From positions 35,620 through 99,619 of the IMG/VR virus record IMGVR_UViG_3300025099_003636: 64,000 nucleotides of DNA. One strand, written 5' to 3'. Position numbers and translations under genes: made by a program. Positions 10,051-63,895 of the stretch are shown in pieces (position 1 is the first letter of the stretch; the number at the start of each line of letters is the position of its first letter). This DNA is from a virus. The notes beneath the pieces were generated by a model, which was given only the letters and a program-made list of their open reading frames with translations, searched no databases and was not told where the DNA came from.

Positions 10051-11151
10051 ATGAAACTAATAATAACACAAAGACAATCTAATCTTCTTATTAAAGAAGC
10101 CATGGGGGTACCCAAACCTATAGAGTTTTGGGTTGACTCTATGTCTTCCTTGGTTAGAGATGGTTTATTAATGTTAGTTTCTTCTGACGACACATCTATT
10201 GATTTTACCGGGGATGAGGTTCAAGAAAAAGTTACTTCTTTAGGGTGGAACACTTCTAATGAAAGTTTTACTAAGTTTCCATTAGCTGAACCTAATTTAA
10301 AGTTAGACTTAGTTATTGTTCCTGATGAAGATGTTAAAATAGGTGATGACTATATAAATAACGCTTCTTTTGATACTGCTGATATGGATATCAAAGAAGC
10401 TACTTTTGATGATGGTGTTACAAGACCTTTATTAGTTGGTGGTACTATTACTCTAGAACTAACTATACCGCAATCTTCATATGATAATGTAAGTTTTGTT
10501 GAATTATTTGATTCAGAAATAAAACCTTATGTTGAGGCTGTTCTATTCCATGAATTAACTCATGTTTATGAATTTTATAACAGATTACTGAATTCTTCCC
10601 TAGACCCTAGTTTCGAGAATATGAGTAGTACAACATCTATGTTAAATAAAATGGGGTTAGTTGATGATTGGGATGAATTAATGTTTTTAGTTTACTTGCA
10701 TTTATCTTTTGAATTAAATGCTCGTGTTTCTGAGGTTTATGGTTTAATTAGAAATAAAAATATAAAGTCTAAAGAAGAGTTTATAGAATTTTTAAAGACT
10801 TCCAGAGCTTTTTCTTACGCTAAAAGATTAAGAAATTTCAAAGCTGATAACTATTATAGTGATTTTGAAGTCCCTCAAGAAACCATAGATAGAGTTAGAG
10901 AGTATGATGGAAAAGAAACACCAATAGATGAAATTAAAGAAATCGTTTTACAACAATTAATTGATAACTGGGTTGTATCTTATAAGAATTTATTAAATGA
11001 TTTTTCAGACGATGAAAATCTATCTATACCCACTTTACCACCAAAGGTAACTTCTTCACCTCAAAAATTTCTTAAGTTCTGGGAGAAAAGATTTAATTCA
11101 GCTGGTGAAGATTCTATCAGAAAAATATCCAAACTTTATTCCTTAATTTAA
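10051..11151 (+). CDS. HExxH zinc-metallopeptidase-like protein with cleavable-type leader
   Basis: Leader MKLIITQRQSNLLIKE|A; VLFHELTHVYE plus downstream ELNAR; TATTTAT at 10039-10045. Confidence 0.55.
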   Translation: MKLIITQRQSNLLIKEAMGVPKPIEFWVDSMSSLVRDGLLMLVSSDDTSIDFTGDEVQEKVTSLGWNTSNESFTKFPLAEPNLKLDLVIVPDEDVKIGDDYINNASFDTADMDIKEATFDDGVTRPLLVGGTITLELTIPQSSYDNVSFVELFDSEIKPYVEAVLFHELTHVYEFYNRLLNSSLDPSFENMSSTTSMLNKMGLVDDWDELMFLVYLHLSFELNARVSEVYGLIRNKNIKSKEEFIEFLKTSRAFSYAKRLRNFKADNYYSDFEVPQETIDRVREYDGKETPIDEIKEIVLQQLIDNWVVSYKNLLNDFSDDENLSIPTLPPKVTSSPQKFLKFWEKRFNSAGEDSIRKISKLYSLI

Positions 11152-11160
11152 TCACTTTCG

Positions 11161-11192
11161 TTTGGTTGCGTAATATTTTTTTCTTATCTTTG
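11161..11192 (+). promoter_or_regulatory. Bacteroidota primary-sigma promoter (-33 TTTG / -7 TATCTTTG)
   Basis: TTTG 11161-11164, TATCTTTG 11185-11192, ATG at 11197. Confidence 0.7.
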
Positions 11193-11196
11193 TAGT

Positions 11197-11697
11197 ATGA
11201 AATTAGAAAAAGCAAGAAATATAGCCCTTAGATTGATGAGAAAACACGGCCTCAATGATTACACTTTTAAGTGGGACAGAGCAGTTCGTAGATTTGGTTG
11301 TCATAATGGTAGATTAAAAACCCTCTCACTTTCTAGACCTATGACTCAACATGAAACTAACGAAAAAAGAGTAATCAATACCATTCTTCATGAAATTGCA
11401 CATGGATTAGATTATAAAAACAGAGGATATTCAAATCATGATGCCGAGTGGAAAAGAGTAGCTAGGTCTATAGGTTGTAGTGGTGAAAGATGTAGTAGTG
11501 GTTCTGGAGTAGACAAATCTCAATTTATGAAGTGGGTGGCTAGTTGTCCTAGTTGTGAAAAAGACGTTTATTACGCAAGAAAAACAAAAGTAGATAAAGC
11601 ATGTGGTAGTTGTTGTAAAAAACATAACAACAACAAATACACATCAAAGTATAAATTTAACTGGGAATTAAATCCTAAAGTTGTAAAATATAGATAA
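11197..11697 (+). CDS. SprT-like zinc metalloprotease
   Basis: RFGC..., TILHEIAH, NHDAEWK, C-terminal CPSC..CGSC zinc ribbon. Confidence 0.85.
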   Translation: MKLEKARNIALRLMRKHGLNDYTFKWDRAVRRFGCHNGRLKTLSLSRPMTQHETNEKRVINTILHEIAHGLDYKNRGYSNHDAEWKRVARSIGCSGERCSSGSGVDKSQFMKWVASCPSCEKDVYYARKTKVDKACGSCCKKHNNNKYTSKYKFNWELNPKVVKYR

Positions 11698-12227
11698 TGG
11701 AAAAATTAAAATACAAAATAAAAAATGGACCAAGGGTAGAATCGGTAAATGAGTTTACCCTTAGTGATAACACTAAAGTAGCCATGTTTCAGGGATTTAG
11801 AGGTTCTTACCCTGACTTAGACTTTATTGTAAAATATAAAGAACCAACAAATAGGTTAAGGACCCCTTCCCACACACATTGGATTGTAGACTTATTAGTT
11901 AAAGCAGAATTTAACAAAGAACTGGTTAGAGACTTCGTTCAGAAGTATTTGGACTTATACGATGTAATGACTCCTTTTGAAACCCAGGAAAGTCGTAACA
12001 ACTACGAACTACAGTATGTGGGAGAGTCTCTAACGGACTTTCAAGGCATAGATGGTTGTGGGTATCTAAGTGTGGAGTTTCTATCTAGTATCTTAGAGTT
12101 ATTCATTTTATGTGAAAAAAGGTCGGACGATGCATTTATGTTTAAAGGTTTATTACAATTAGTAATTGACTTCTGTGATGGTAAAAGAGATTACTATCAA
12201 GTAGTAGGTTACTCTAAAAGAGTTTAA
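11697..12227 (+). CDS. Hypothetical protein
   Basis: 176-aa ORF overlapping the SprT-like stop codon. Confidence 0.6.
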   Translation: MEKLKYKIKNGPRVESVNEFTLSDNTKVAMFQGFRGSYPDLDFIVKYKEPTNRLRTPSHTHWIVDLLVKAEFNKELVRDFVQKYLDLYDVMTPFETQESRNNYELQYVGESLTDFQGIDGCGYLSVEFLSSILELFILCEKRSDDAFMFKGLLQLVIDFCDGKRDYYQVVGYSKRV

Positions 12228-12228
12228 T

Positions 12229-13035
12229 ATGAAAGAAAAATTAAAAGAATTATTATCAATACCAACTAAGACTTGGGAGGAGGAAAGATTAATCAAATAT
12301 CTTATAGGTCATTTCGAAGAAAAGGGTTATAAATATGAAAAAGATGATTTAGGTAATCTGTATGTAACAAAAGGTATTTCCGATTATTTTCCTTTAGTTC
12401 TTGCACACACTGACAGTGTACACGACATTGAGGAGATGGAAGTCAGGGAAGAGTATTTGCCTAACTCACAAGGTGAAAGTAAATTAGCTCTTAAGGCTTA
12501 CACAAAAGAAGATGGTTTACCTACAGGGATAGGTGGTGATGATAAAGCTGGAGTTTTTATATGTTTACAATTACTGGAAAAGTTTGATGTGATTAAAGCT
12601 TTTTTTCCAGTTGCTGAAGAGACTGGATGTCATGGAAGTAGAGGTGCTAATGAAGAGTTTTTTAAGGATGTTGGTTACGCGATACAATTTGACTCTACTG
12701 AAAATGATACCATGTCTCTTTCCTTAATGGGCGTTAAATTATTCGAAGAGAAATCTGAATTTTTTAATAAAACTCGTAACGTAATTTTAGAGCATGGTTT
12801 TACTGAGTGGAGACATCACCCATATACTGACACTATGATTTTAAAAGAAAAGTTTAATTTTGCTTGTTTAAATTTTGCTGCGGGTTATTATAATTACCAC
12901 ACAAGTAATGAATATGTGGTTGTAGAAGACGTAATAAACTCTATAAAATTAGGAGAAAATGTCATAAAAAAATTAGGTAATTATTTTTATGAATTTAAAC
13001 CGGTTCAAGAAAAGTCTAGTTCTTGGTGGGGGTAA
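12229..13035 (+). CDS. M20/M28-clan metallopeptidase
   Basis: AHTDSVH, GGDDKAG, AEETGC, IQFD, YHTSNE zinc-ligand motifs. Confidence 0.8.
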   Translation: MKEKLKELLSIPTKTWEEERLIKYLIGHFEEKGYKYEKDDLGNLYVTKGISDYFPLVLAHTDSVHDIEEMEVREEYLPNSQGESKLALKAYTKEDGLPTGIGGDDKAGVFICLQLLEKFDVIKAFFPVAEETGCHGSRGANEEFFKDVGYAIQFDSTENDTMSLSLMGVKLFEEKSEFFNKTRNVILEHGFTEWRHHPYTDTMILKEKFNFACLNFAAGYYNYHTSNEYVVVEDVINSIKLGENVIKKLGNYFYEFKPVQEKSSSWWG

Positions 13036-13588
13036 TAAGTGACTCCAACCAATCCGCAACAGGATTATAAATAAAAGTTTCTGAATTGTTAAATATTTGC
13101 CTAAAGTCTTCATACTCAGCATGATTCCTTCTTGGGTTTGATTTATACTCTATCGTAGGATATAAACCTATTTTTTCCACTTCCATAACCATATTTCTAA
13201 TAGTATCTTCTAGTTGTCTTACTTGTAATTTTTTCCAAATACCATCATAATTAAGTTCTGGAGATGTTCTATGTATTTGGTCTAGTATTATTGTTTTCCA
13301 ATTATTATCTAAATAATTTATTAAATAAAAATCTTTTTTTTCTTTTATTTTTTCTAAACTCAAAGTTAACTCTTGTTCTTTTATAGGTAATTTAATACTT
13401 ATATTTTCTAACACATTTAGTGTTTTTGGGTTCCAACTGGAGTCTTTATTAACAAAATGTAACATTGTAGCTGTTTTCTTATCAACCTCTAATATATTAC
13501 TTATATTTGTTATTTGAATTAAAGTATCATCACTAGAATTTTCTATTATTCTATCTACCCTATCTAATATTTTAGTTAATTCACTCAC
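13016..13588 (-). CDS. Hypothetical protein with class-B-like leader
   Basis: MSELTKILDRVDRIIE|N; sense TATTTATA at 13602-13609. Confidence 0.55.
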   Translation of the reverse strand: MSELTKILDRVDRIIENSSDDTLIQITNISNILEVDKKTATMLHFVNKDSSWNPKTLNVLENISIKLPIKEQELTLSLEKIKEKKDFYLINYLDNNWKTIILDQIHRTSPELNYDGIWKKLQVRQLEDTIRNMVMEVEKIGLYPTIEYKSNPRRNHAEYEDFRQIFNNSETFIYNPVADWLESLITPTKN

Positions 13589-13666
13589 TTTATCTTTTTA
13601 TTATAAATATTTTGTTTTGTACAATAATTTACATATATTTGTACTATATATAAATAAATAAATATT

Positions 13667-13855
13667 ATGCCAAAATCGAGAAATAGAAAAAACCACAGTA
13701 AGAAAGTTGCTGCTAGAAATCAAAGACTTAAACAAGAACAAAATGCTCTTAGTAAACAAATGGAATTAATGAAAGAAGAGTATATCAAAAAAATGGCTGA
13801 AGAAGCTAAAGAAAAAGAAGTCGATGCGGGTGAAGTACCTTTAACATTGGGTTAA
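13667..13855 (+). CDS. Small basic/coiled-coil hypothetical protein upstream of tmRNA
   Basis: 62 aa MPKSRNRKNH...; TATATTTG promoter box upstream (~13644-13651). Confidence 0.6.
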   Translation: MPKSRNRKNHSKKVAARNQRLKQEQNALSKQMELMKEEYIKKMAEEAKEKEVDAGEVPLTLG

Positions 13856-13860
13856 CATAT

Positions 13861-14271
13861 GGGGGTGACTGGAATTGATTGGCATCAGTCGATTAGTGTC
13901 AGCACGTCAAGCCTGAATTAAGCTTGTAAAACTGATTCATTTTTTTAACTGGCAAAACAATTGCTAAGTTGGTGACTTTAGGACTTGTCCGTGAGGAGTC
14001 AACAGTGGCTGTAGCGTAACTAAGTTACGACATAGCTCCATCTCTTCTAAAGAATTTAAGATTTGTGTCTTTAGTTTTTGGGGTGTCAAATAGACAAATC
14101 GAACCCGGTAACGTTTTCCACCGGTATGATGTATAGGGGGACTTGGGACTGATTTGAAGGTTGTTTATTCTATAGAATTAAGTCCGACAACAAAAGAATA
14201 AACTAAACGTGTAGGATAGACGTTAGTAGAAGATGAACAAGACGTGGGTTCGAAACCCACCACCTCCACCA
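13861..14271 (+). ncRNA. ssrA: tmRNA (SsrA)
   Basis: GGGGGTG (13861-67) pairs with CACCTCC (14261-67) including G3.U70; T-arm GTGGG-TTCGAAA-CCCAC; ACCA end; internal tag frame after TAACT at 13951-14019. Confidence 0.93.
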
Positions 14272-14276
14272 AAAAG

Positions 14277-14298
14277 AAAAGGACCATTAGGTCCTTTT
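14277..14298. terminator. Bidirectional intrinsic terminator
   Basis: AAAAGGACC-ATTA-GGTCCTTTT between convergent tmRNA and CDS. Confidence 0.8.
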
Positions 14299-14299
14299 T

Positions 14300-15511
14300 T
14301 TATTTTAATAATTTTGCTAACCCTATTGGTTCTTTTCTTAATACACTTATTAAACCTTCATTAATTGTATTAACTATTGTACCTTCAGAATCAATATCAA
14401 AAGGTATGTTATTTATATATTTTTTGATACCATTTATATATTTTTTAGGTATACTACCTCCTAGGTTAGTTGAAATTCTCTTTCTTATGACGTTTGGACT
14501 AAATTGTATGTTGAAGTCGTCGAATAAAGGTGCTGACATTGATGCTCCACTAAAAAATCCTAAGTACTCACCACCTGGACTTTTCATTAACATATCACTT
14601 TTTTTCCTGTCACCTTTAGATGCGGAACTTAAAGAATAACCTCTATATTCTAATATTGTTAATGCTTTTGCTAAATCTTCAATATAACTAGAATCAACGT
14701 CTTCACCATAAAAACCTTTTTCTGTACTTATTCTAAAATCTGGATATGTTTGGTTTAAACTGGCTATAACTTCTAAAGCTCTTTCGTATATTGCATCATA
14801 TGTCCTATCAAATTTAGCTTTACTTGTAGCATACCCTTTTATTATCTGTGTACCTTTTATACATCTACCAATATCACCACAATCGTCAGTCACACAAAAA
14901 CAAAATTCATTTTCTAGTTCAACTTCTTTTTCAAATTCACATCTAGACTTTACTGTAGCTTCTGAATTATAGTTAACAGCATCTGGGTCCATACAACCCT
15001 TTATTTCTTCAATTGGTGCGACAACACCTTTATCATCAGCAACACAACCACAGTTACTATCACTCCACCTTACAAGTTCACCCCCACTTTTTCTTTCAGA
15101 ACACTTTTTAACCTCATCATCATAATCTGAACCTAACTTTTTTTTACATTTTTCTTTAGCTGATTTTGGTTTTACTACGTTATTATCACAAGCTGTTTTT
15201 AATTTTTCAACATAAGAACTAATGTCAGTATCGAACCAAACAGATTTTTTTATAATATCGACTAAAGTGTTGTAAATTTCACATAGGTCTTCAGCTACTT
15301 TAGGTCCCTTAGAAGCTTCACCAATTTTTTTTATTGCCTTATTAATAGTATCTCCCTTAGAAAAATGATTACCTTTCTCATTAAGTTTTAAATGTTTACC
15401 AATATTATTATATGGGGCATTTTTATTTACTCCCGCAATGTTTTCGGTTTTGGTTAATAAAAAATCTTTATTACCTTTACAACATTCTAAATTTCCTAAC
15501 TTTTCAGCCAT
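14300..15511 (-). CDS. Cys-containing hypothetical protein with GCxD..A.NY module and conserved C-terminal trailer
   Basis: GCMDPDAVNYNSEATV; ends TINE|GLISVLRKEPIGLAKLLK. Confidence 0.6.
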   Translation of the reverse strand: MAEKLGNLECCKGNKDFLLTKTENIAGVNKNAPYNNIGKHLKLNEKGNHFSKGDTINKAIKKIGEASKGPKVAEDLCEIYNTLVDIIKKSVWFDTDISSYVEKLKTACDNNVVKPKSAKEKCKKKLGSDYDDEVKKCSERKSGGELVRWSDSNCGCVADDKGVVAPIEEIKGCMDPDAVNYNSEATVKSRCEFEKEVELENEFCFCVTDDCGDIGRCIKGTQIIKGYATSKAKFDRTYDAIYERALEVIASLNQTYPDFRISTEKGFYGEDVDSSYIEDLAKALTILEYRGYSLSSASKGDRKKSDMLMKSPGGEYLGFFSGASMSAPLFDDFNIQFSPNVIRKRISTNLGGSIPKKYINGIKKYINNIPFDIDSEGTIVNTINEGLISVLRKEPIGLAKLLK

Positions 15512-15512
15512 T

Positions 15513-17798
15513 TTATTTGTTCTTTAAAATATTTATTAACCCTTCTGTTATATTTGGTAATGGATTTCTGCTAGTGTCACTTTCTTTATTCATTCCTTTT
15601 ATTTTATTTTTTACACCTTCTATACCACCGTCTTGGAATGCTTCATATAATTCATTTACTATGTTTGTGAAGTCGTCTTTTAACTCTTGTACTTTTGCTC
15701 CACTTCTTTTACCTATATCTGGATTATTTTCATCTGTGGTAAAATAAGGTTTTTCACATTTATTAGAAGGAATCCCATAACATTGTCCTTTATTAAACTC
15801 TTCTGATGATAGACCATCTAACCAGGTTTGAAAATCCTCAGCAGCCCAGTCATTATCTTCGGTTCCGTATGGTGAATATGTTTTGTACTTAGTAATTCTT
15901 TCTAGATTATCAGCACTAATTAACGCGTTAGGTTTATATCTAGAGTAAACCAATTCTTCATTTTCATTATATCTTTTTGGTGCGTATTGTGGCCAAAATT
16001 CTACTAACGCATCTGTAACATCAAGTAAATCATCATCAGCTGCTTCAGAACCAATTAACCATTCTTTATCAGCAACAACATCAAACACATCTTGTCTGGT
16101 GGTAAACACCCAATTAAGGAGTGTTGAAACACCTGGGAGAACTTTAGCGTTCATTAAACTTAAATTATCCATTAATTTTTCGTCACCAAGTCTATTATAA
16201 AAATAAGTTACTTGTGACATAGCAAGTACAGAAGGTACTTTTTTTATCACAGCTATAATAGAATTATCAGCTACACCTGTAAAAAGTTTTAATGCACCTA
16301 CATCAGGTACGTTATCATAAGACATATCATCTATGACGGTTTGTAAAAATTCCTCTCGTTTATTATTTGGGATTTCGTCTATACTTGTTGCTGCTTGACC
16401 GGACCCGTCTTTATTGTTGTACTTTCCAATGTAATCATTAAGGTTATTTAACTCATTTAAATCTCTAAATAACATCCACCCTTGTAGGTATCCATATAGT
16501 TTTTTTGCAAAAGCTTCTGCTTCCGTATCTGATAAACCACCTCTATCAAAAACAATTTGTTTATTTCCTTTAAATTTTTGATAAAATTTTTCAGTTAAAC
16601 CAGCTATAGATTTTTGACTAGCTGTTAGTTCTTGGAATTTTTGTACTATAAAATCTAATAGTAAACCTAAACTAACTGCACCAATTGTATAATACCACCC
16701 TTTTGCGGTTTTTGGTATTATTTTAAGTAGTGTACCACCTACAGTTACAGATTTTAATTTTTGTCTCAACGCAGTAACTAACTCATCCGTGGCATTTCTT
16801 TCTCCCCCTAACAAAAATTTAAGTTCCTTATCTGTTATTGTACCATTTTTAACTTGTCTACGTAATTGTCCTGTAGAATGCTTCTGGAGTAGTTCTATTA
16901 TCTCCTTTTGTTGGTCTGACCTTAATAATATACCAATAATGTCATCCATCACTTGAGGCGGAATCACTCTTTGTCTTGCAATTGACTGTGCTACTTGTGC
17001 TACCAAATCCTCCACACTCATCGGTAACCTGACTTGTGTTTGTTGGCTCGCTAATATTTTTAATTCATCTAATAATTTAGATAATGAAGGGTTATCTAAA
17101 TTATTCATCCAATCTCTTAGTGCTTTTTGTTTTACACCATTACTACCAGTAAAGGCTTTTTTAAATAAAAGGTCTTTTATTCCTTTTGTCCACTGCATTA
17201 CTAATGTATCGTCGGTTATGCCTTGTAATGCATTAGTAGGTGTGGTTGGTCCAGTATCAGTTTTTGTTTTTACGTCATCAGTTTTTACATTTACGTCATC
17301 AGTTTTTACTTTTGTCTTCTCTGATGTTTCTTTTGCAACCTTTTTTTCCAGAGCTTTAAGTTCAGCTCCAAGTGATACTCTGAAAGATGAACCATCTGCT
17401 AATCTTTCCGGTAGTTTAGCTATAAGTTCGTCTAGTTTAGCACCTTTTAACTTACCCGAAGTAACACTCTCCAGTATTCTTTTTAATATGCTCGCATTAA
17501 AACTGACACCACTATCAGCTACAATCTTTTGAGTTCCTTTAATTGTTTGTGTGTTAACATCTTTAGCTAATCTTCTAAATATGTTGTCTATTTTTTTACT
17601 GGATGTCCTACTCAATAATTGTGATATTCTATTAGATAGTTGTTCGGCCGCTTCTTTTGATAGGTTTTTACCAAAAATTTTGCTTAGATATTCGGTGAAC
17701 TCTCTTGATAATTGTTCATTTAGTGGTGTGTCTATTCTTGGTTTAAGCCCCATTATTTGACGAGCTCTATCTATTTCTGTTATAAGTGTATTAATCAT
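15513..17798 (-). CDS. Large leader-bearing protein, one TM segment, possible annexin-like repeat
   Basis: Leader LITEIDRARQIMGL..PLNE|Q; hydrophobic WYYTIGAVSLGLLLDFIV; ends NITE|GLINILKNK. Confidence 0.6.
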   Translation of the reverse strand: MINTLITEIDRARQIMGLKPRIDTPLNEQLSREFTEYLSKIFGKNLSKEAAEQLSNRISQLLSRTSSKKIDNIFRRLAKDVNTQTIKGTQKIVADSGVSFNASILKRILESVTSGKLKGAKLDELIAKLPERLADGSSFRVSLGAELKALEKKVAKETSEKTKVKTDDVNVKTDDVKTKTDTGPTTPTNALQGITDDTLVMQWTKGIKDLLFKKAFTGSNGVKQKALRDWMNNLDNPSLSKLLDELKILASQQTQVRLPMSVEDLVAQVAQSIARQRVIPPQVMDDIIGILLRSDQQKEIIELLQKHSTGQLRRQVKNGTITDKELKFLLGGERNATDELVTALRQKLKSVTVGGTLLKIIPKTAKGWYYTIGAVSLGLLLDFIVQKFQELTASQKSIAGLTEKFYQKFKGNKQIVFDRGGLSDTEAEAFAKKLYGYLQGWMLFRDLNELNNLNDYIGKYNNKDGSGQAATSIDEIPNNKREEFLQTVIDDMSYDNVPDVGALKLFTGVADNSIIAVIKKVPSVLAMSQVTYFYNRLGDEKLMDNLSLMNAKVLPGVSTLLNWVFTTRQDVFDVVADKEWLIGSEAADDDLLDVTDALVEFWPQYAPKRYNENEELVYSRYKPNALISADNLERITKYKTYSPYGTEDNDWAAEDFQTWLDGLSSEEFNKGQCYGIPSNKCEKPYFTTDENNPDIGKRSGAKVQELKDDFTNIVNELYEAFQDGGIEGVKNKIKGMNKESDTSRNPLPNITEGLINILKNK

Positions 17799-17808
17799 AA
17801 TTATTTTT

Positions 17809-18261
17809 TTACCACAAAGGGTTAGCTTTCCCTCTACTTGTTTGGTAGGAGTCTGCCCATTTACTATTTATTATTTGGTTTGCCATTCCTCTAGTTATTC
17901 CTGTTTCCCATACTCCAAGTGATGCTGTACCAGCTCCTGCACCATCATCTGATTCTCCAGACTCTGTTCCCGCATCTTGTTCCATAAATTCACCTGGTGC
18001 ATAACTATCTTCTGGTCCGTCACTATAAAAGTCATACGCTGAATTTTCTTTAGAGTAGTTGGTTTCTGGTTCAGTAAATCCTTCCCCCTCTAATTCTGGT
18101 TCAGAACCTAAAGCTCCTTTACTTGTAAAACTATACTCACTTGCACCATCTGTATCGGCATAACCACCTTGTAGACCGGACATAATATCTTCATTTAATG
18201 GGTTACCATCAAACATTATTTCCTTAACTCTATCTATATTTTCTTGTAACGAATCACACAT
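17809..18261 (-). CDS. Acidic Gly-rich leader-bearing protein
   Basis: LQENIDRVKEIMFDGNPLNE|D; TATTTATA at 18272-18279. Confidence 0.6.
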   Translation of the reverse strand: MCDSLQENIDRVKEIMFDGNPLNEDIMSGLQGGYADTDGASEYSFTSKGALGSEPELEGEGFTEPETNYSKENSAYDFYSDGPEDSYAPGEFMEQDAGTESGESDDGAGAGTASLGVWETGITRGMANQIINSKWADSYQTSRGKANPLW

Positions 18262-18639: not shown

Positions 18640-19053
18640 TTACAGTCTACGTGATTTTAACCAAAATATTTCTCTACCTGCTCTAGTTTCTAAGGCTCTT
18701 AATTTTTGTTTAGATTTTTTTAAATCTAATTCTGGGGATTTTTCTAAATCACCCATCAAAAATGATGTAAACTCTAAAACATCAGCATTTAACTCTTCTA
18801 CGTATTGTACTCTATCTTGTAATTGTTCTATTTGGTCTTGTTGTAAAGCAACAATTTCTTCAGGTGATAAAAGTTTTTCTAACTCATCTTCAATGCCTTC
18901 AATATCATCTTCAGCATCATAAATGTCATTATCAGTATTAATCATATTAGCTTGGTCCAAAACTCTAAGAACCTCATCATCAGCAGTTTCTTGTTCAAGT
19001 ATATTTTTAAGTACTTTGGTTAACTGTTCTTCAGAAATTTTAATTTTTTTCAT
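18640..19053 (-). CDS. Class-A leader-bearing coiled-coil protein
   Basis: MKKIKISEEQLTKVLKNILE|Q; TATTTATA at 19067-19074. Confidence 0.65.
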   Translation of the reverse strand: MKKIKISEEQLTKVLKNILEQETADDEVLRVLDQANMINTDNDIYDAEDDIEGIEDELEKLLSPEEIVALQQDQIEQLQDRVQYVEELNADVLEFTSFLMGDLEKSPELDLKKSKQKLRALETRAGREIFWLKSRRL

Positions 19054-20617: not shown

Positions 20618-21601
20618 ATGAAACTAAAAATATTAAAGGAACAGAATAAAAATTATAACTTAAGTGTCTTAGATTTTATAAGACTTTTAGACCCTAGTAA
20701 GACTGGCAAATTTCTCCAAATTTTATTAAACGAATTAAAGTCTTATGATAATTCTATTGCTGTTTCACAAGGTAATGTTTGGGAATTAAGTAATCAGGTT
20801 GAGGTGTCTACTGGTGTTAATGAGGAAATAATAAACTTATTGATTGAGTGTCTGGGTGGTGTGGATATTATTAATGACTTAGAAAAATTTGAGGTGTTGT
20901 GTGAGGAAAATTTAATCACTATTAAAGATATACAAGAATATAAATCTTTAGGTGAGATATCTTTGGCTGTAATAGATGCTGAAGAAAAAAGAAAGGGAAC
21001 TTTGCCAAAAAAAAATATTATTTTAGATAATTCTGAATACCTAGTACTTAAACCTTTAAACATATTTGCTTCTAGAAAATATGGTGCATCCACTAAATGG
21101 TGTACTTCCAGTAAAGAACCTAAAACTTTTTATGATTACTCTAATAAAGGGATACTACTTTATATATTATCAAAAGAAAATAATAAAAAATGGGCTGTAT
21201 ATTATGATTTAAAAGATAAAGAACTGTCTTGGTGGAACTCTAGAGATATCTTAACTGATGGTTATCTGGTGGATTTACCTGAAAAACTAAAAAAGGATGT
21301 GTTAAATTACATTTTAAATGAATCCAACCCAAACAGTCATTATTTCGATAAAGAGACTAAATTACTGTCTGAACAAATTTTAATTGGTGTTGTGGATGAG
21401 GATGGTCAATATAATGAAGTTTTAGCTACCCCAGAACCATTTACTGGTATATGGCGTAATGGTGTTAATGGTCCTACCTGGAATCCAGGTGAATATGCGA
21501 CCACAAGTACTGAAGATAGAATAGATGGTTTGGTTAATAAAACATTAGAGTGTCACTACACCATAAAAGCTTTAAATGAGGGTGGTAAAATTATTAACTA
21601 A
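20618..21601 (+). CDS. Phage hypothetical protein with PcfJ-like motif
   Basis: LVLKPL...ASRKYGASTKWCTS...F..Y...LLYI...KWAVY...WWNSRD. Confidence 0.5.
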   Translation: MKLKILKEQNKNYNLSVLDFIRLLDPSKTGKFLQILLNELKSYDNSIAVSQGNVWELSNQVEVSTGVNEEIINLLIECLGGVDIINDLEKFEVLCEENLITIKDIQEYKSLGEISLAVIDAEEKRKGTLPKKNIILDNSEYLVLKPLNIFASRKYGASTKWCTSSKEPKTFYDYSNKGILLYILSKENNKKWAVYYDLKDKELSWWNSRDILTDGYLVDLPEKLKKDVLNYILNESNPNSHYFDKETKLLSEQILIGVVDEDGQYNEVLATPEPFTGIWRNGVNGPTWNPGEYATTSTEDRIDGLVNKTLECHYTIKALNEGGKIIN

Positions 21602-22096: not shown

Positions 22097-22624
22097 ATGA
22101 AAAATCTACTAACAACACTACTTTTAATACTAACCATAACATCATATGGACAAACTAAATTAGATTCTCTTATATTTGATATGGTGAACGAATATCGTGT
22201 TTCTAACGGATTAACTGCTTGGGTTTGGGACGATAATACTTTTTTAATCGCAGAAAAACACAATGAGTATCAAGTAAAAATATCTGATATTTCACATAAA
22301 GAATTGCAGGATGTTGAAAACCATAAAGAAGTTAGTAGGTTAGCTCATCGTTTTGATTATGTTTTTACAGATTGGATGCGTTGTGGTGAAAATATAGCTG
22401 TTGTTAATACATTAGATTTATCAGTAGAAGAAATTGCGACTACTACATTAGAAATGTGGATTGCTTCACCACCACATAACAGAACACTTTTACAACCAAC
22501 TAAATATGAATATGGTGCTATTAGTTCACATAGTAGTACAAAATGGTCACGTTCTAAGTACTCTCACAGTAATAGTTGGGTTTATGTTACCTTAAATGTT
22601 TATGGGGGGTCTTTACCTAATTAG
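22097..22624 (+). CDS. Secreted CAP/SCP-domain protein
   Basis: Signal peptide; NEYRVSNGL, A..H, SH, GENIA, W.ASPPH...LL. Confidence 0.8.
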   Translation: MKNLLTTLLLILTITSYGQTKLDSLIFDMVNEYRVSNGLTAWVWDDNTFLIAEKHNEYQVKISDISHKELQDVENHKEVSRLAHRFDYVFTDWMRCGENIAVVNTLDLSVEEIATTTLEMWIASPPHNRTLLQPTKYEYGAISSHSSTKWSRSKYSHSNSWVYVTLNVYGGSLPN

Positions 22625-24464
22625 ACATCCAGTTTGTATTGTAACTTGCCATATTATTGTTTACTACATCGTCAATAAGTGGTCCAGTTGCAATACCTAC
22701 AGCCCATCTTCCACCACCTCCACCACCAGAAAAGTCAGGACACTCCATACCCCCTAGTTTTTTCTTCTTTGGACTTTTATTAATCCGTCTAGTTGTAAAT
22801 TTAAATGGGAATTTTAATCTTGTGGTATATTTCTTACTATATTTTTCTTTAGGTACAAACTTTATTTCCCATTGACGTGTAGGTGAAACAATTTTTACAT
22901 CTTCGAAAGTTCCTGGTTCACCTGGCTTCTCATCAGAGTCACCTTCAGGTGGATAAACCTCAATTCCTAAATCTACCATACAATATTTATACTTATCGTA
23001 GTTTGGACAGTTAAATCTACCTTCATCATCTGGTTTACAGTTTTCTAATGGGTCACCGTAATTATCTCTATCATCTTCATTTGTTGTTGCTGAAGGTCCA
23101 CTTCCTTTTGCCATAGTAAAAGGTGATGGTGGGTTTGGTCCACTTGAACCGTCATTATTATAACCACTACTGTCTATCTGTGGTTCTGGTAATGTTACCC
23201 CTATTTTTGCAAATGCGTTATCAATATAAGTTTCTACTGATTTAGCTCTTGCGTCGGATAGTTTCTGGAATGACCAACTTTTAACCGCTCCTCCATTTCT
23301 AGCCCTACTTGCTGATGTCCAAATTTTGTATGATGTTATTTTATATTCGACTCCAGGATTTTCTTTTAAAGATTTTGCAAGAGTGGCAACCGCACCATTA
23401 ATTTCATTTTTTAAGTCTTGGTGTAATTCTGTACTATTATTAACGAATGGTGTGAACTCTTTATCTTGTACACCCATTAATTGTAACCCTAAATCTATAG
23501 AACAAGATTCGGTAGGTTCTTCTCCTTCTGTCTCTATAGGGTCTAGATTTATAATTTCATCTGGACCTTTAACATTTCTTAAGTTTATTTCAGAAAAGAA
23601 TTTTTTAAGTAATTTAAGGTCTGATAATTTTGCTGCACGTTTTTTATTTCTTTTCATTTCTCTCCATTTCTGAAAATACTCTTTAAACAACAGAAATAAA
23701 CCTCGTTTGTCCTCTTCTGTCATAACCCAACCTTTTTCATTATAAGCTTTATCTTCGTTTTTCCACCTTTTTTTAGATTTCCTATCTAACTTTTTATAAA
23801 AAGCTTTCATAAGTTTAGATGTGGAAGCTCTTAAATCATCAAAATCCTCATCTCTTTGTTCTGTATTTTTTAGTCTGTCATTTTTCCATTTTTCCTCATA
23901 TCTTTTATCACTAGCTATTTTTTGTACAGTCCACTTTTCTAAAGCTGTATCATATTCTTCTTTATTTCTTGCAAACATAACTCGTTCACGCAAGTCTAAA
24001 GCTTCAAATTCCGCTACACCCAAGTCTAATATCCTTAACGCTTCACCCAACAAACTTTTATAATTACTCAAAGCACCATAACCTCTTTGTTCAGGGTCTG
24101 CATTTACTTTTTCTTCAAATTTAGGAATGTAATCTTGTAATAACTTTATATAATCTTCTAGATACGGATTTTGTAATTCTTTTACTCCTGGCAAACCACG
24201 GTATTTATTTTTAATAGAAGGTGCTTGGTCAATACCATAACCATCTTTTAATTTTTGTAACAACTCACTGTCCTCTTTAGACCACTCATCACAACAACCT
24301 GGTGCTGTACTACCGTCAGGCATACCGTTATCGTCTATACAAGGACATTCCTTTTCTCTTTCTATACCCATTACAAAATCGGACTCTTTTTGTTCGAATA
24401 TTAAATGGTTTAGTCCCATTATTTCTCTGTTTCTATTTAATTCTTCTAAAAGCTGTTTTTCCAT
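22617..24464 (-). CDS. Class-B leader-bearing protein with OmpA-C-like domain
   Basis: LLEELNRNREIMGLNHLIFE|Q; FVNNSTEL...TSASR...QKLSDARAKSVETYI. Confidence 0.55.
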   Translation of the reverse strand: MEKQLLEELNRNREIMGLNHLIFEQKESDFVMGIEREKECPCIDDNGMPDGSTAPGCCDEWSKEDSELLQKLKDGYGIDQAPSIKNKYRGLPGVKELQNPYLEDYIKLLQDYIPKFEEKVNADPEQRGYGALSNYKSLLGEALRILDLGVAEFEALDLRERVMFARNKEEYDTALEKWTVQKIASDKRYEEKWKNDRLKNTEQRDEDFDDLRASTSKLMKAFYKKLDRKSKKRWKNEDKAYNEKGWVMTEEDKRGLFLLFKEYFQKWREMKRNKKRAAKLSDLKLLKKFFSEINLRNVKGPDEIINLDPIETEGEEPTESCSIDLGLQLMGVQDKEFTPFVNNSTELHQDLKNEINGAVATLAKSLKENPGVEYKITSYKIWTSASRARNGGAVKSWSFQKLSDARAKSVETYIDNAFAKIGVTLPEPQIDSSGYNNDGSSGPNPPSPFTMAKGSGPSATTNEDDRDNYGDPLENCKPDDEGRFNCPNYDKYKYCMVDLGIEVYPPEGDSDEKPGEPGTFEDVKIVSPTRQWEIKFVPKEKYSKKYTTRLKFPFKFTTRRINKSPKKKKLGGMECPDFSGGGGGGRWAVGIATGPLIDDVVNNNMASYNTNWMSN

Positions 24465-24475: not shown

Positions 24476-24967
24476 TTAATTCCAAAGTATTATTATATCT
24501 TTATCTGTTAGGTCTATTTGTACTGATGTAGGTAATATCGTGTGATACCTCATTTTGTCATCTTTTTCATCCATATAATACCATTTATCTGGGTCATCAC
24601 TCTTAAATCCACCCATATCATCCACTATTATTTCTATACGTTTCTCAGTTTCAACTTTTGTGTAGTCTTCATCGAAAATTTCAATAACCACTTCAAGTTT
24701 TACACTTGTTGTGTATATACTAATATCTTTGATACCCCAACTTCTAATATCCATATCATATCTCCAATTTACTTCACAGTCCATATATGATATATCAAAA
24801 TCTCTACCTTTATATTCAGGGAAATAATCACCCACACCAAATAAGTCTACATCATCTATTTTGGTCGTAAATGAGTTTGGGTCATCAGAAAAATTTCTTT
24901 GTTCTTTTACAATGCTTTCGACAACTTGTGTAAGTTGTGATTCCGATAATTTTATTTTTTTAATCAT
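24476..24967 (-). CDS. Class-A leader-bearing protein
   Basis: MIKKIKLSESQLTQVVESIVKE|Q; TATTTAT at 25007-25013. Confidence 0.65.
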   Translation of the reverse strand: MIKKIKLSESQLTQVVESIVKEQRNFSDDPNSFTTKIDDVDLFGVGDYFPEYKGRDFDISYMDCEVNWRYDMDIRSWGIKDISIYTTSVKLEVVIEIFDEDYTKVETEKRIEIIVDDMGGFKSDDPDKWYYMDEKDDKMRYHTILPTSVQIDLTDKDIIILWN

Positions 24968-26625: not shown

Positions 26626-26864
26626 CGACCTACTTTAGAAAACATTCCTTGAAAAATTTCTTCGATAGCCCCTATTACGGCATATTGGTCTTCACCCCAG
26701 TTAGATTTATGTTTATCTATAATTTTATCTACAACAAATCTTAAATCTTTTTCTAGTAAATCCCATTTATCTGGGCCTTCATTTTGCCACCAGTTATCAT
26801 CTTCGTTAATTTTATTAACAATTTTTTTTAACTGTTCTTCTGATATGATTATTTTTTTTGCCAT
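26622..26864 (-). CDS. Class-A leader-bearing small protein
   Basis: MAKKIIISEEQLKKIVNKINE|D. Confidence 0.65.
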   Translation of the reverse strand: MAKKIIISEEQLKKIVNKINEDDNWWQNEGPDKWDLLEKDLRFVVDKIIDKHKSNWGEDQYAVIGAIEEIFQGMFSKVGR

Positions 26865-45150: not shown

Positions 45151-45361
45151 CCAGTTCTTTTTTAGCTTTGTCTGTTGGTGGTAACCCCAACTTCTTAGTT
45201 AGTTCAGCAATTTTAGTTTTTAATTCTTCGTTATCTGGGTCTTTTGTAAGTTGGTTTATTAGACCCATTAAGTCTTTGTTTTCCACTTCTTTTTCCTGTT
45301 CTTTAATAACCCTACCTACTATTCTTACTAAAGTTTCTTCTGTTAATTTGATTTTTTTCAT
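45143..45361 (-). CDS. Class-A leader-bearing small protein
   Basis: MKKIKLTEETLVRIVGRVIKE|Q; TATTTATA 45375-45382. Confidence 0.65.
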   Translation of the reverse strand: MKKIKLTEETLVRIVGRVIKEQEKEVENKDLMGLINQLTKDPDNEELKTKIAELTKKLGLPPTDKAKKELGV

Positions 45362-45400
45362 AATAGTATTTTATTATAAATATTAAGTTAAGTGAATAAA

Positions 45401-48351: not shown

Positions 48352-48684
48352 TTATTTAAATCCACCCAATTTGTATAGTAAATTTTCTAAAGAAGAGTTA
48401 ACTAAGTCTGTTGCACCGTCTTGTGAATAAGAATATATCGCTGTTAAATCATCTACAACATCTTCTTTAGTGTATATTGCTCCTTCCTCCGAGTCTTTAC
48501 TGTATATTGCTCCATCATCTGAGTCTTTACTGTAGTTACCCCCGTATTGTTTTTTTAGATTTTTCCAGTCATCGTCATAAAAATACTCTGGATTACCACC
48601 TGGTGTATCCATACCAGCGTCCTCTTTTATAACTTTTTGGATTATTTTTGTCAATTCCGCTTCTGTTAAACTAATTTTTTTCAT
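48352..48684 (-). CDS. Class-A leader-bearing small protein
   Basis: MKKISLTEAELTKIIQKVIKE|D; internal YSKDS..GAIY tandem; TATTTAT 48703-48709. Confidence 0.65.
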   Translation of the reverse strand: MKKISLTEAELTKIIQKVIKEDAGMDTPGGNPEYFYDDDWKNLKKQYGGNYSKDSDDGAIYSKDSEEGAIYTKEDVVDDLTAIYSYSQDGATDLVNSSLENLLYKLGGFK

Positions 48685-51152: not shown

Positions 51153-51503
51153 TTATTTGTGTATGCCTAGTATGTGGTGAGATATATAATCTCTAACGGT
51201 ATTTAGGTTTTCAGCTGCTATCGTTATTTTAGATTCAACCCATTCAGGTAAATCCATGTCGTCTTGAATCATGTCTGAAACTTCTTTTGCGTCATTCATT
51301 AATTCCATAGAATCATGTTTTGCCATTCTACCTTCACCCTTATCTATTTTTAAACCTTTTTCATTTAGGTATTGTTCTACTTCTTCAACTTCACCTTTTT
51401 CAGTCATACTCATACCTACGTTATCTTCATTAATTTGTTGCATTCCATGTAAACCTCTAATCCTATTTTTTTCTTCTTCGTTTAATTTAAATCTATTTTT
51501 CAT
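51153..51503 (-). CDS. Class-D leader-bearing protein
   Basis: MKNRFKLNEEEKNRIRGLHGMQQINE|D; C-terminal LPEWVESKIT helix; TATTTATA 51517-51524. Confidence 0.65.
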   Translation of the reverse strand: MKNRFKLNEEEKNRIRGLHGMQQINEDNVGMSMTEKGEVEEVEQYLNEKGLKIDKGEGRMAKHDSMELMNDAKEVSDMIQDDMDLPEWVESKITIAAENLNTVRDYISHHILGIHK

Positions 51504-51533: not shown

Positions 51534-52172
51534 TTAGATAAATTGAGCTGGGGTAAGGTTAAGTTCTGTTAGTTTTGAATCGGCAATGTCCTCCACTTCT
51601 ATATCCCCATGGTAATCACTATCCTCAGTTTGTCTATCCACTTCATGTGACCAAGGGTCATTTTTCGCTCTATCTTCCGCATCTTCTTTATTAGACCCAT
51701 AGATATCACACATAATAGTAGAATATTCAGTAACGGTTTCTGTAACTGCAACATCAACTTCATACATCTTACCAGGAACTAATTCAATATCACCTTCTGA
51801 AAACTTTCTATCACTACCCCCATTATGTAGGTAATTCACTACAATAGTATAAAGTAAAAAATGATTAAAGTTTCTAGGTACCAAACCAACAATCTTAAGT
51901 CCTTGTTCTATTCTACCAGCTAATACTGCCATTTCTTTTTGATTATCTGGGGAATTATTAAAAGGGTAACTTGTTGGGTGACCATACCTTTCATAGTAAT
52001 TTAATAAATCTCTACAACCCTGTTTACCACCCACAGTTGTCATGTAAGTAAAAAGTACTCTAAGTTTTTGTTTAAACTTATCAGTCGTTGCATCTAAAGC
52101 ATCACGACCAGATTGTGTTCTACCCATGTCGTCAGTTTGTTCTCTTAATATTTTTTCAATTAAGTCTTTCAT
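51534..52172 (-). CDS. Class-C leader-bearing protein
   Basis: MKDLIEKILRE|Q. Confidence 0.6.
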   Translation of the reverse strand: MKDLIEKILREQTDDMGRTQSGRDALDATTDKFKQKLRVLFTYMTTVGGKQGCRDLLNYYERYGHPTSYPFNNSPDNQKEMAVLAGRIEQGLKIVGLVPRNFNHFLLYTIVVNYLHNGGSDRKFSEGDIELVPGKMYEVDVAVTETVTEYSTIMCDIYGSNKEDAEDRAKNDPWSHEVDRQTEDSDYHGDIEVEDIADSKLTELNLTPAQFI

Positions 52173-52473
52173 TAATATTATTGTTTTCGAAATCTTGTAA
52201 TTCTGGTAGTTCTACACCAAACTCTTTCCACTCATTATTGTTATTTAACTGAGTCTCTAACTCCTTATAAAGTTCCTCCTCTGTTTTCTTCTGACCATCT
52301 AATCCCTTAGACATCATTATTTCACCAGTTTCAACACTTATAACCTTTACGTCTAATCTACACGTACCATAAAAACAAAATCTACTTCCTTCTACTATAT
52401 ACTTCTTTCCTTGTTCATTAAGAACCCCCATTAACTCTTTCGCTCTAAGTATTTCTTCGTTTAAGATATCCAT
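52156..52473 (-). CDS. Class-B leader-bearing protein
   Basis: MDILNEEILRAKELMGVLNE|Q; TATTTATA 52478-52485. Confidence 0.65.
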   Translation of the reverse strand: MDILNEEILRAKELMGVLNEQGKKYIVEGSRFCFYGTCRLDVKVISVETGEIMMSKGLDGQKKTEEELYKELETQLNNNNEWKEFGVELPELQDFENNNINERLN

Positions 52474-57632: not shown

Positions 57633-57683
57633 AATTTTATTTTTTATTAATAATAATATAATAACTTTTTATGTAAAAGTATA

Positions 57684-59698: not shown

Positions 59699-59704
59699 AT
59701 ATTT

Positions 59705-61205: not shown

Positions 61206-61208
61206 AAT

Positions 61209-61711: not shown

Positions 61712-61725
61712 AACTTTTATTTTTG

Positions 61726-61797
61726 TACCCCGACGGAGAATCGAACTCCGGTTACCAGGATGAAAACCTGGCGTCCTAACCACTAGACGACCGGGGC
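61726..61797 (-). tRNA. tRNA-Glu (anticodon TTC), CCA not encoded
   Basis: GCCCCGG..GTCTAGTGGTTAGGAC, CCAGG-TTTTCAT-CCTGG, CGGAG-TTCGATT-CTCCG, TCGGGGT-A then CAA. Confidence 0.95.
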
Positions 61798-61800
61798 TAA

Positions 61801-61998: not shown

Positions 61999-62079
61999 TG
62001 TTTTTATATTTTATTTATATCTTTTAAGCACTACAAAGATAATAAAATTATTTTAATTATACAACGATATTTATATATT

Positions 62080-62343
62080 ATGAAGGCATTAATTAAAAAA
62101 ATATTAAATGAGTTTAAAATAGATGAATTATCTAGACACGACTACAAAGATGGTGAAATAGTTATGGAGTATGTTGAGGGTTATGACTACCCTAAATATG
62201 TTTTATACTATGATTCACCACAACAAATAACTATTGATGGCCCTAAAGAAGATGAATATGAAATTATAGCTGAGTTAGATAGTAGGTTCTTTGATGCTGG
62301 TATGGTAAACACCATTATAGATTATTTAAAATCCAGAGAATGA
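62080..62343 (+). CDS. Class-C leader-bearing small protein
   Basis: MKALIKKILNE|F; TATTTATA 62068-62075. Confidence 0.6.
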   Translation: MKALIKKILNEFKIDELSRHDYKDGEIVMEYVEGYDYPKYVLYYDSPQQITIDGPKEDEYEIIAELDSRFFDAGMVNTIIDYLKSRE

Positions 62344-62993
62344 AAGGATTAATTAAACAAGTATTAAGTGAAGAACTACTAAAAGAAGAAAAGGTGGTTA
62401 ATTTTAATTCTCCAACAAATAATTTTGTTGTTATAGCTGGAGGACCTGGTGCTGGTAAAAGTTTTATCACTAGAAACTTAATTAATTTAGATAATGTAAA
62501 AGAATTTAATGTAGACCAAGTTAGGGTTATGACAGCAAAAAAACTTTGGGGTGATGACTGGGAGGAAAATATCTCTACTGCTGATGGGTATCAAAAAATA
62601 CTTAATATGACTTACACCACATCTGACCCTAGAAATCTAACAGTTAAATTTCTTAAACAATTCTTAGAACAAGAACGTGACCAACCTGTTAATGTAGTTT
62701 ATGATGCGGGTGGAGGACAAGAACAAGTAATGAAAGATGTACATAAATTAGCAAAAAATAATGGATTTAACACCACCCTAGTTTATGTTAGAACTCCTTT
62801 GGAATTGGCTCAGATAAGAAATCAGGAAAGGCCTAGAAGTCTACCACCAGAAATGGTAGCACAATACCATCAAAAAGTTAAGGATAATATGAGAAATATG
62901 ATACCTGTTTTTGATAATGTATGGACAGTAGACAACAAAGAACTTATAGATTTATCAGATAGACCATCTGAAAATATAGAAAAGTTAAAATAA
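62340..62993 (+). CDS. Class-C leader-bearing P-loop kinase (zeta-toxin/AAA_33-like)
   Basis: MKGLIKQVLSEELLKE|E; IAGGPGAGKSF, NVD, VVYD, YVRTPLELAQIRN..R.R. Confidence 0.7.
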   Translation: MKGLIKQVLSEELLKEEKVVNFNSPTNNFVVIAGGPGAGKSFITRNLINLDNVKEFNVDQVRVMTAKKLWGDDWEENISTADGYQKILNMTYTTSDPRNLTVKFLKQFLEQERDQPVNVVYDAGGGQEQVMKDVHKLAKNNGFNTTLVYVRTPLELAQIRNQERPRSLPPEMVAQYHQKVKDNMRNMIPVFDNVWTVDNKELIDLSDRPSENIEKLK

Positions 62994-63019
62994 CTAAGTA
63001 TTTATATTAAAATAATATT

Positions 63020-63895
63020 ATGAAAAACGTACTAACTATATCAGAAGAAGAAAAAAACAGAATTAGAGGGTTACATTTAACAGAATCTAAAAATAACAGA
63101 ATTACCTCCGTATTGAGTGAAGAGGGTATACAGGATATGTTGGACGATGATAATTTAAAATTGTGCTTTATCGTACATTTTGAGAGTGGTGAAGTAGATA
63201 AGATTGAGCTTCCTAGGTCTGGAAATGTAGCTGATGATGCTAATTTTTATGGTAGAGTGATGCGATTGTTGATGCAGGGGATGAGAGGTGATAGACCATT
63301 TATTGATATAGAAGCTGGTACATCTGGTACTGGAAGTCATGACCGTAATAGGGAAGTTATGGAAGAAAGAGTGAATCAAGCGATTGAGTTTCTAATTGAT
63401 GAGGTGTCCAATTTTGTAGGACCTAATAAATTAAAGTACAGTGTTCCCGCAATAATAGATAAAGCTAATATAGATAGAAAGTATAGTAGAATTGAACCTG
63501 GTTCTATAATACCATTAACTGGAGAAGAAGTTCCTACTGACCCTAATGATGATTATTTTAAAGATGCACAATATGTACAAATTTGTATTAATCCAGTTAC
63601 AGAAACACCAAACTACAATAGTTTGGCAGATTTATTTATTAAAGCAACTAAAGATGACAGTTTGGGAACGGATGAAGACGGTGTTTATAGCATTTTACAG
63701 AAAATGAGAGATAAGGAAGACTTTGAAGCGTTTCAAGAGGAGTTAAGAGTGGGAATGTATGAAATGGATTTTTATGAAGTAGTTTGTGATGGTGGGGTAT
63801 GGCCATTTGGTAAGGTTAAAGAACTTCCTAGGGGAGACCATCACGGTATCGATTCAGAATTAAGGAGATTAGGGGTGAAACCTATTCCTTGTTAA
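63020..63895 (+). CDS. Class-D leader-bearing protein with OmpA-C-like and annexin-like domains
   Basis: ISEEEKNRIRGLHLTE; VHFESG..IEAGTS.TGS..RN..V.EER; LFIKATKDDSLGTDEDGVYSIL; TATTTATA 62999-63006. Confidence 0.55.
   Translation: MKNVLTISEEEKNRIRGLHLTESKNNRITSVLSEEGIQDMLDDDNLKLCFIVHFESGEVDKIELPRSGNVADDANFYGRVMRLLMQGMRGDRPFIDIEAGTSGTGSHDRNREVMEERVNQAIEFLIDEVSNFVGPNKLKYSVPAIIDKANIDRKYSRIEPGSIIPLTGEEVPTDPNDDYFKDAQYVQICINPVTETPNYNSLADLFIKATKDDSLGTDEDGVYSILQKMRDKEDFEAFQEELRVGMYEMDFYEVVCDGGVWPFGKVKELPRGDHHGIDSELRRLGVKPIPC

Follow-up and report, generated by a model that had tools for sequence, protein, structure and literature searches.

Why should viral proteins that have little else in common begin with one of a few short, recurrent peptides? 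The question is raised by a stretch of 64,000 nucleotides of viral DNA ('the window', by which the whole stretch analysed is meant), which corresponds to bases 35,620-99,619 of one virus contig, 99,619 bp long (IMG/VR record IMGVR_UViG_3300025099_003636). Approximately a fifth of the genes in this fragment start with one of a few such leader peptides, or 'tags', each followed by a protein body (the 'payload'). An original prediction, drawn from the sequence and its open reading frames, had sorted some twenty of these leaders into five classes (A to E), and had proposed that they load many different payloads into the prohead and are clipped off at maturation, so that the payloads can be delivered at infection. 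The analysis described here leads to a similar answer: the leaders are probably capsid-targeting propeptides, of the kind carried by the internal proteins of phage T4, a reading to which we assign a probability of roughly 0.6. Every genomic prediction of the earlier proposal that could be computed came out in its favour, and the interpretation as a whole is partly supported.

According to this reading, the leader would form a short amphipathic N-terminal helix that attaches the protein to the scaffolding core while the prohead assembles. A serine protease of the gp21 family would then cut after the glutamate of an [L/I/V]-x-E site at the end of the leader (with, in class A, a possible further cut after an invariant glutamate at position 8), and the payload, freed inside the head, would be able to leave with the DNA at infection.

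Unrelated proteins behind recurrent N-terminal peptides

All 21 open reading frames (ORFs) named in the original prediction are present where it placed them (gene coordinates are window positions throughout) and begin with the N-termini that it described. Its claim that the payloads differ everywhere except in class E agrees with BLASTP comparisons, in which only the proteins of 41842 and 46889 are related to one another (45% identity), and in which all other payload pairs lack a match at E<0.01. When the 99.6-kb contig was searched in six frames with regular expressions, the class motifs always lay 0-8 residues from the first methionine of an open frame, and never internally. Comparison of the N-terminal 28-mers gave 14 pairs with a local score of at least 40, whereas three control segments taken from the interior or C-terminus of these proteins gave 1, 1 and 0; the corresponding numbers in a complete relative (G002) are 96 pairs versus 22, 36 and 13. 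A profile analysis of the N-termini, of the kind that the original prediction had suggested, pointed the same way: local hidden Markov models (HMMs) of classes A-D produced 48 N-terminal matches in three genomes versus three in internal control segments, and tag 18 of the 113 genes in this contig, with class E and the variants not counted. Across all proteins of three genomes, the pattern [LIV]xEQ is also five- to ninefold enriched within the first 30 residues, where control patterns show no such rise. Synonymous codons differ between leaders, and the conservation therefore acts at the level of the peptide.

The tags in these genomes are N-terminal only and are absent from metabolic and host-like genes. 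The original prediction had further stated that genes such as those for DnaK, ligase and the glycosyltransferases, read from host-type promoters, lack leaders. The first part of that statement holds (DnaK, ligase, glycosyltransferase, an SprT-like protein, the large terminase TerL and the portal are all leaderless); the promoter part could be checked only weakly, a Bacteroidota-type TAnnTTTG box being found upstream of six non-leader genes and of no leader gene, a difference that is not significant.

The payloads themselves range in size from 72 to 761 residues, and 20 of the 21 have an isoelectric point (pI) between 4.1 and 6.4. Searches of the leader proteins against Pfam, PHROGs and NCBIfam returned no model that covers the tags, and nearly all payloads are ORFans. 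The domains that could be recognised behind tags are unrelated to each other: a P-loop kinase in this contig, polyphosphate kinase 2 (PPK2) and Peptidase_M23 in G002, and LysM in metagenomes. The polyphosphate kinase and the M23 peptidase of G002 both carry class B leaders (L084:5806-6906 (+) and L085:8148-9728 (+), respectively). Tag and payload can also part company: one payload family is class C-tagged in this phage, whereas three relatives give it an A-like tag. For the 21 leader payloads, the complete G002 genome offers a homolog in just one case, versus 33 of 88 cases for other genes (p=0.003).

The class A tag is widespread. Its profile is found in three to nine copies in four of five related genomes, in at least 1,353 clusters at 90% identity among 8,000 candidates scored, and, in an exhaustive search of 1.84 billion proteins, in 5,214 representatives of 50%-identity clusters (E<=1e-3). 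Nearly all of these metagenomic matches begin with the tag and continue with unrelated sequence. The class A HMM found nothing in Flavobacterium phage immuto, Microcystis phage Mel-JY01 or two huge uncultured phages, a three-tag protein had no real match by tblastn among 50,697 phage records, and searches of the literature found no published description of these tags. At the genome ends of G002 (L083:1186-3547 (-), and L097) lie tandem paralogs of about 105 residues that start M-K-Y-L-I-T-E-S-Q, together with another family that starts M-N-L-Q-E; both are further leader-like classes that are absent from the window.

Leader anatomy, the head module and a predicted cleavage site

The class A consensus, approximately 21 residues long, reads MKK-[IV]-x-[LI]-[TS]-E-x-[EDQ]-L-x-x-h-h-x-[KR]-h-h-x-E. 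In a logo built from 111 non-redundant leaders with different payloads, columns 1-16, through the terminal glutamate, carry 2-4.3 bits. The column of the terminal glutamate itself carries 3.7 bits (Glu in 102 of 111 leaders, Asp in two), the column after it 1.7 bits (Q, N, E, D, S), and all later columns less than 0.9 bits, these being rich in G, D, S, N and P. Two glutamates are strictly conserved, at position 8 and near position 21, and both stand in an hxE context; in a third acidic column, outside such a context, D, E and Q are freely mixed. Class A has two candidate cut sites, after the glutamate at position 8 and after that near position 21, in a departure from the original prediction. 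All five tag classes end in [LIV]xE. An AlphaFold model of the 110-residue class A protein (48352-48684), itself of low confidence, places residues 8-22 of the leader in a helix, after which comes a linker that is again of low confidence. The helix of class A leaders is amphipathic, with a net positive charge.

The machinery that such a cleavage would call for is encoded close by. The contig (G+C content about 31%, CheckV completeness 27%) represents about 27% of a T4-type jumbo phage, and a T4-ordered head module lies just upstream of the window and extends into its first 5 kb. By Pfam matches and comparison with T4, the order is the large terminase (TerL), a gp20-type portal (PF07230), two small genes, an S77 protease, a very acidic 468-residue protein that is a candidate scaffold, and a gp23-type major capsid protein (MCP; PF07068); the module thus matches gp20-gp21-gp22-gp23 of T4 in gene order. 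The original prediction had recommended looking for a gp21-like prohead protease elsewhere in the genome, and the S77 protease of this contig (L002:11777-12478 (-)), with its catalytic histidine and serine, is just such an enzyme: it scores 91 bits with Peptidase_S77 (PF03420; cut-off 27), shares 37% identity with T4 gp21, and retains the catalytic His (E-L-N-H-P) and Ser (S-S-R-G), both of which are replaced in the inactive crystal construct PDB 5JBL. An S77 protease is found in all five related genomes. No gp24-type vertex paralog was found in this contig fragment.

The clade to which the head module belongs is large: IMG/VR contains at least 597 contigs with a capsid protein that is 64-74% identical to this MCP, among them G002, a genome of 293,850 bp rated 100% complete. 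The nearest cultured phages by MCP are Microcystis phage Mel-JY01 and Flavobacterium phage immuto (41-44% identity), and a megablast search of the leader island against cultured phages revealed no near-identical relative. A Bacteroidota host is suggested by signal peptides and a few TTG...TAnnTTTG promoters.

Two conserved proteins of the head module appear to possess maturation sites of the same type as the leader ends. When the MCPs are aligned, the experimentally known maturation site of T4 gp23 falls exactly on L-I-N-E|A in the present phage, and on I-x-E|A in both Mel-JY01 and immuto. All 80 of 80 relatives keep L-I-N-E unchanged, with alanine as the following residue in 78. Five [LIV]xE sites occur in the 60 residues before the predicted cut, versus four in the remaining 540 residues of the protein. 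The best internal evidence for the type of site comes from a conserved 437-residue protein that adjoins TerL (38-1351 (-), outside the range of the original prediction), which begins with a short basic N-terminal piece ending in [LIV]xE. That site directly precedes an invariant A-P-I-D-Y in eight of eight distinct orthologs, whereas its middle residue and the basic residues before it vary, a pattern that would be expected of a protease site. This N-terminal piece resembles the 10-residue propeptide of T4 gp24. The AlphaFold model of the 437-residue protein is poor (pLDDT 52.6) and Foldseek found no match to it, so that a role of the protein in the head is putative. Comparisons between orthologs place the leader ends in a similar position with respect to their payloads: the class B protein of 17809-18261 differs from its ortholog in the relative G003 by a 19-residue insertion or deletion in the linker, yet [LI]xE is kept immediately before the conserved start of the payload, and another ortholog pair, with a 2-residue difference in the linker, also keeps [LI]xE directly before the conserved payload.

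The leader genes may also be expressed together with the head genes. Among oriented 7-mers upstream of genes, TATTTAT shows the strongest excess (97 copies versus 36 of its reverse complement in G002), and it ranks top in three related genomes. It lies 5-39 nt before the ATG in 11 of 11 leader genes that have a spacer of at least 20 nt, versus 11 of 40 other genes (p=1.5e-5), and it also precedes the genes for TerL, the portal and the protease; leader genes that lack an upstream spacer of their own are operon-internal. From its distribution, TATTTAT(A) is a candidate late promoter, unlike that of T4 (TATAAATA).

Leader genes and their neighbours

The class A leaders are all encoded on the minus strand. 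The gene at 18640-19053 (137 residues) has TATTTAT 14 nt upstream and an ortholog in G003; that at 24476-24967 (163 residues) has the motif 39 nt upstream; and that at 26622-26864 (80 residues) is operon-internal. At 45143-45361 lies a gene for 72 residues, with the motif 14 nt upstream and a homolog (P0033) that is 90% identical. An ORF on the opposite strand that overlaps it (45063-45386 (+), 107 residues) is probably spurious, because it is the minus-strand gene that has the promoter motif and the close homolog. The gene at 46014-46844 (276 residues, motif 16 nt upstream) encodes the sole basic payload, with a pI of 9.0, and that at 48352-48684 is the gene of the modelled leader helix (110 residues, motif 18 nt upstream). 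A variant, A-like leader is found on the plus strand at 10051-11151 (366 residues, motif 5 nt upstream), where the likeness to relatives extends a few residues beyond the glutamate.

Class B leaders, again on the minus strand, are carried by 15513-17798 (761 residues), 17809-18261 (150 residues, motif 17 nt upstream, and the G003 ortholog described above), 22617-24464 (615 residues, with a cysteine-rich payload) and 52156-52473 (105 residues, motif 5 nt upstream). A variant B-like gene at 13016-13588 (-), of 190 residues, requires a GTG start at 13588, and TATTTAT stands 14 nt upstream of that GTG. Class C comprises 43471-44298 (-) (275 residues, the payload homologs of which have an A-like leader in relatives), 51534-52172 (-) (212 residues), 62080-62343 (+) (87 residues, motif 5 nt upstream) and 62340-62993 (+). 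In the last of these, the leader (residues 1-11) and a linker are followed, from residue 30, by a P-loop kinase domain of the AAA_33 or zeta-toxin-like type; its leader suggests that it is possibly a packaged kinase.

Class D is found at 45425-46009 (-), for which an ATG start at 46009 (giving 194 residues) is preferred over a TTG at 46027, and at 51153-51503 (-) (116 residues) and 63020-63895 (+) (291 residues), each with the motif 14 nt upstream. Class E consists of the two paralogs at 41842-43470 (-) (542 residues) and 46889-48349 (-) (486 residues).

Several further genes may belong to the set. If a GTG start is used, the gene at 44299-45150 (-), which was not in the earlier list, is a candidate with a leader-like helix ending I-Q-E. 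A weaker candidate, with a short C-like leader, is 20618-21601 (+), the first eight residues of which end L-K-E and are followed by Q. Close to the head module, a conserved protein of 353 residues (1355-2416 (-)) has a C-like and then an A-like motif at its N-terminus, and another of 373 residues (2810-3931 (-)) has a class B-like motif close to its N-terminus; ESM Atlas comparisons of these two module proteins were uninformative.

Elsewhere in the contig, positions 1-14,700 of the viral record, outside the window, are taken up by a long series of plus-strand genes of the sugar-nucleotide and glycosyltransferase-like type, with neither leaders nor TATTTAT. Two giant minus-strand ORFs in the window, of 1,593 residues (27247-32028) and 2,955 residues (32064-40931), have a G+C content of 37-39%, versus 30-33% in the rest of the contig, and have no Pfam match and no leader; TATTTAT is present 52 nt upstream of the longer one. 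A tmRNA gene (13861-14271 (+)) encodes, according to ARAGORN, a tag of 18 residues that ends V-A-V-A rather than in the usual A-L-A-A, and its neighbours encode DnaK, a Clp-like ATPase, an SprT-like protein and a thioredoxin. The window also contains a gene for tRNA-Glu (anticodon TTC; 61725-61797 (-)); the predicted maturation sites all depend on glutamate, and the link is probably a coincidence.

Rival readings and known systems

A number of considerations weigh against the idea of capsid-targeting propeptides. Its support comes from sequence analysis, and no cultured phage that was searched carries the tags. Leaders of classes A, B, D and E have no sequence similarity to the T4 capsid-targeting sequence (CTS), and those of class C resemble it only loosely in pattern. 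The payloads are mostly acidic while the T4 internal proteins are basic, which differs from the picture painted by the original prediction. A share of about 16-20% of genes is a lot for head cargo, and for some payloads, PPK2 among them, injection is not an obvious fate. The proteome is rich in Glu and Ile, and [LIV]xE is itself common in it, at about 18 occurrences per 1000 positions. Nor is the tag obligately N-terminal, in a further departure from the original prediction: approximately a quarter of the best metagenomic class A matches have the tag core again at one or two internal positions (P0001, P0007, P0016, P0022 and P0131-P0134 are among these multi-tag proteins). Finally, the conservation of 16-22 residues exceeds the needs of a cleavage site and also fits a binding helix that is not cleaved. 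Conservation of this strength points to binding by a specific partner, a role that the T4 model would assign to the scaffolding core.

The main alternative follows directly from that last point: the leader could be a docking helix that binds one conserved partner (either a virion component or some other hub of the phage) and, not being cleaved, is retained on the mature protein, with its terminal glutamate forming part of the binding surface. The excess of conserved residues, the heptad-like stripe formed by the hydrophobic positions and the presence of two or three copies of the tag core in one protein, as expected of a binding module, are all in keeping with this model, but it sits badly with the details of the leader ends, and we consider it unlikely. 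Both of the strict glutamates are in an hxE context and are almost never replaced by aspartate, whereas the other acidic column is permissive; conservation ends exactly one residue past the glutamate; and [LIV]xE forms the end of each of five tag classes that are unrelated to one another. In addition, an extra hxE site is found upstream of 24 of 58 internal tag copies, where 17.7% would be expected (p=2e-5), so that the internal copies might represent excisable joints. That enrichment is only suggestive, because translated A-rich ribosome-binding spacers left behind by gene fusions could yield the same residues; some internal copies keep Met-Lys-Lys, which points to the fusion of adjacent leader genes.

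Other machines could in principle read the leaders, such as a modifying enzyme of the kind that acts on ribosomally synthesised and post-translationally modified peptides (RiPPs), or a phage Clp-type ATPase or DnaK. Genes for DnaK (5884-7749) and a Clp-like ATPase (7991-10033, phrog_4871) do adjoin leader genes, and a tmRNA is encoded as well. A radical-SAM enzyme (PF04055), however, is absent from the tag-bearing genomes G000, G001 and G004 and from the complete G002, and the single copy in G003 is not near leader genes; with the enzyme missing from four tag-bearing genomes, the radical-SAM or RiPP-type version is not supported. Recognition by another machine would also leave unexplained why the leader ends match the MCP site and why a motif is common to leader and head genes, and the S77 protease, by comparison, is present in all five genomes; we judge it distinctly improbable. 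Even less weight is given to the suggestion that the leaders are amphipathic helices that direct late proteins to a membrane or other subcellular site, in a role unrelated to the capsid. The amphipathic character and positive charge of the class A helix would suit such a role, and T4 proheads assemble on the membrane, but helices of this sort are usually degenerate, whereas the tag hardly varies over more than 5,000 families; its hydrophobic stripe is narrow and lacks aromatic residues, and the strict terminal glutamate would have no explanation. Least credible of all is the notion that the tags are what is left of a paralog family after its decay, DNA-level recombination linkers or products of chance composition. 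The class E pair are true paralogs, and recombination of leaders is known from T4, where two CTS copies are identical at the DNA level. These readings are nonetheless largely ruled out by the differences in synonymous codons between leaders, by an N-terminal similarity far above that of the internal controls, by the sharp boundary of conservation and by payloads that include unrelated known folds.

The reading of the leaders as capsid-targeting propeptides can be taken a step further, at somewhat less than even odds. If the tags are true cleaved capsid-address peptides, then the tagged families of metagenomes, 5,000 or more, would amount to a very large set of proteins, recognisable by sequence, which uncultured T4-like jumbo phages load into their heads and inject together with the DNA as takeover or anti-defence effectors and as enzymes, the internal copies would be excisable joints for polyprotein cargo, and the separate classes could address different places in the prohead or specify different amounts. 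A profile of 16-22 residues would then flag thousands of candidate injected proteins of uncultured aquatic jumbo phages, including proteins of the first moment of infection (anti-restriction and takeover factors) that are otherwise very hard to recognise. It would also mean that the T4 CTS principle scales from three or four proteins to a fifth of a genome, with several parallel tag classes, and would provide engineering with new portable packaging tags and with a defined pairing of protease and site.

How far, then, does this resemble what is already known? In T4, gp21 cuts after L/I-x-E, a 10-residue CTS is enough for packaging, and the internal proteins (Ips) share only that leader (PMC9026906, PMC3012670, PMC5694885, PMC12373910); replacement of the last CTS position by Asp blocks processing but not targeting (PMC9026906). 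All three T4 internal proteins are specific inhibitors of GmrSD-type restriction enzymes (PMC12373910), and the T-even ip loci combine a conserved tag with polymorphic, rapidly replaced cargo (PMC12373910, PMC9026906, PMC3012670), a pattern that the high turnover of payloads under conserved tags in this phage resembles. The T4 CTS, MKTYQEFIAE (confirmed in the T4 record), ends in [L/I]-x-E, the gp21 site, just as the leaders here do. In both systems (in T-even phages IPI-III and Alt, with a short propeptide on gp24 as well, all removed by gp21) the leader is the only feature common to unrelated, fast-evolving accessory proteins; to judge by the upstream motif, the leader genes of this phage may also be co-regulated with its late head genes, as in T4.

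The differences are chiefly of scale and composition. There are at least five tag classes here versus one in T4, the tags are 11-25 residues long rather than 10, and 18-25 tagged genes are present in a 27% fragment, versus three or four in T4 and about ten across the T-even phages; the tagged families in metagenomes number more than 5,000. The payloads here are acidic, reach 761 residues and include enzymes, and the tags occur internally in multi-tag proteins as well, whereas the T4 Ips are small and basic. The proteins are therefore not members of the T-even Ip family by sequence, because their tags are not homologous to the CTS and their payloads are neither small nor basic. The T4 system is known from experiment, while loading and cutting here are predicted from sequence.

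A second point of comparison is offered by the jumbo phages phiKZ, 201phi2-1 and SPN3US, in which a diverged gp21-like protease acts on many head proteins with N-terminal propeptides that end in x-E and contain multiple sites, and in which paralogs can have common conserved N-termini (PMC5694885, PMC9026906). Those proteases cut after S/A/G-x-E or A-x-E, with a small residue two positions before the glutamate where the leaders described here have an aliphatic one, and their propeptides are mostly longer than 100 residues and, unlike these leaders, are not portable tags on unrelated proteins. The phage studied here belongs instead to the T4-type MCP lineage (Pfam Gp23) and is not phiKZ-like. 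What is already known is thus the T4-type principle of loading and then clipping, and the novelty lies in the tag sequences themselves, in how many classes exist in parallel, in how much of the genome carries them and in how large the pool of tagged proteins is. Taken together, these comparisons suggest that the system is most likely a much enlarged version of the T4 'load, then clip' tag.

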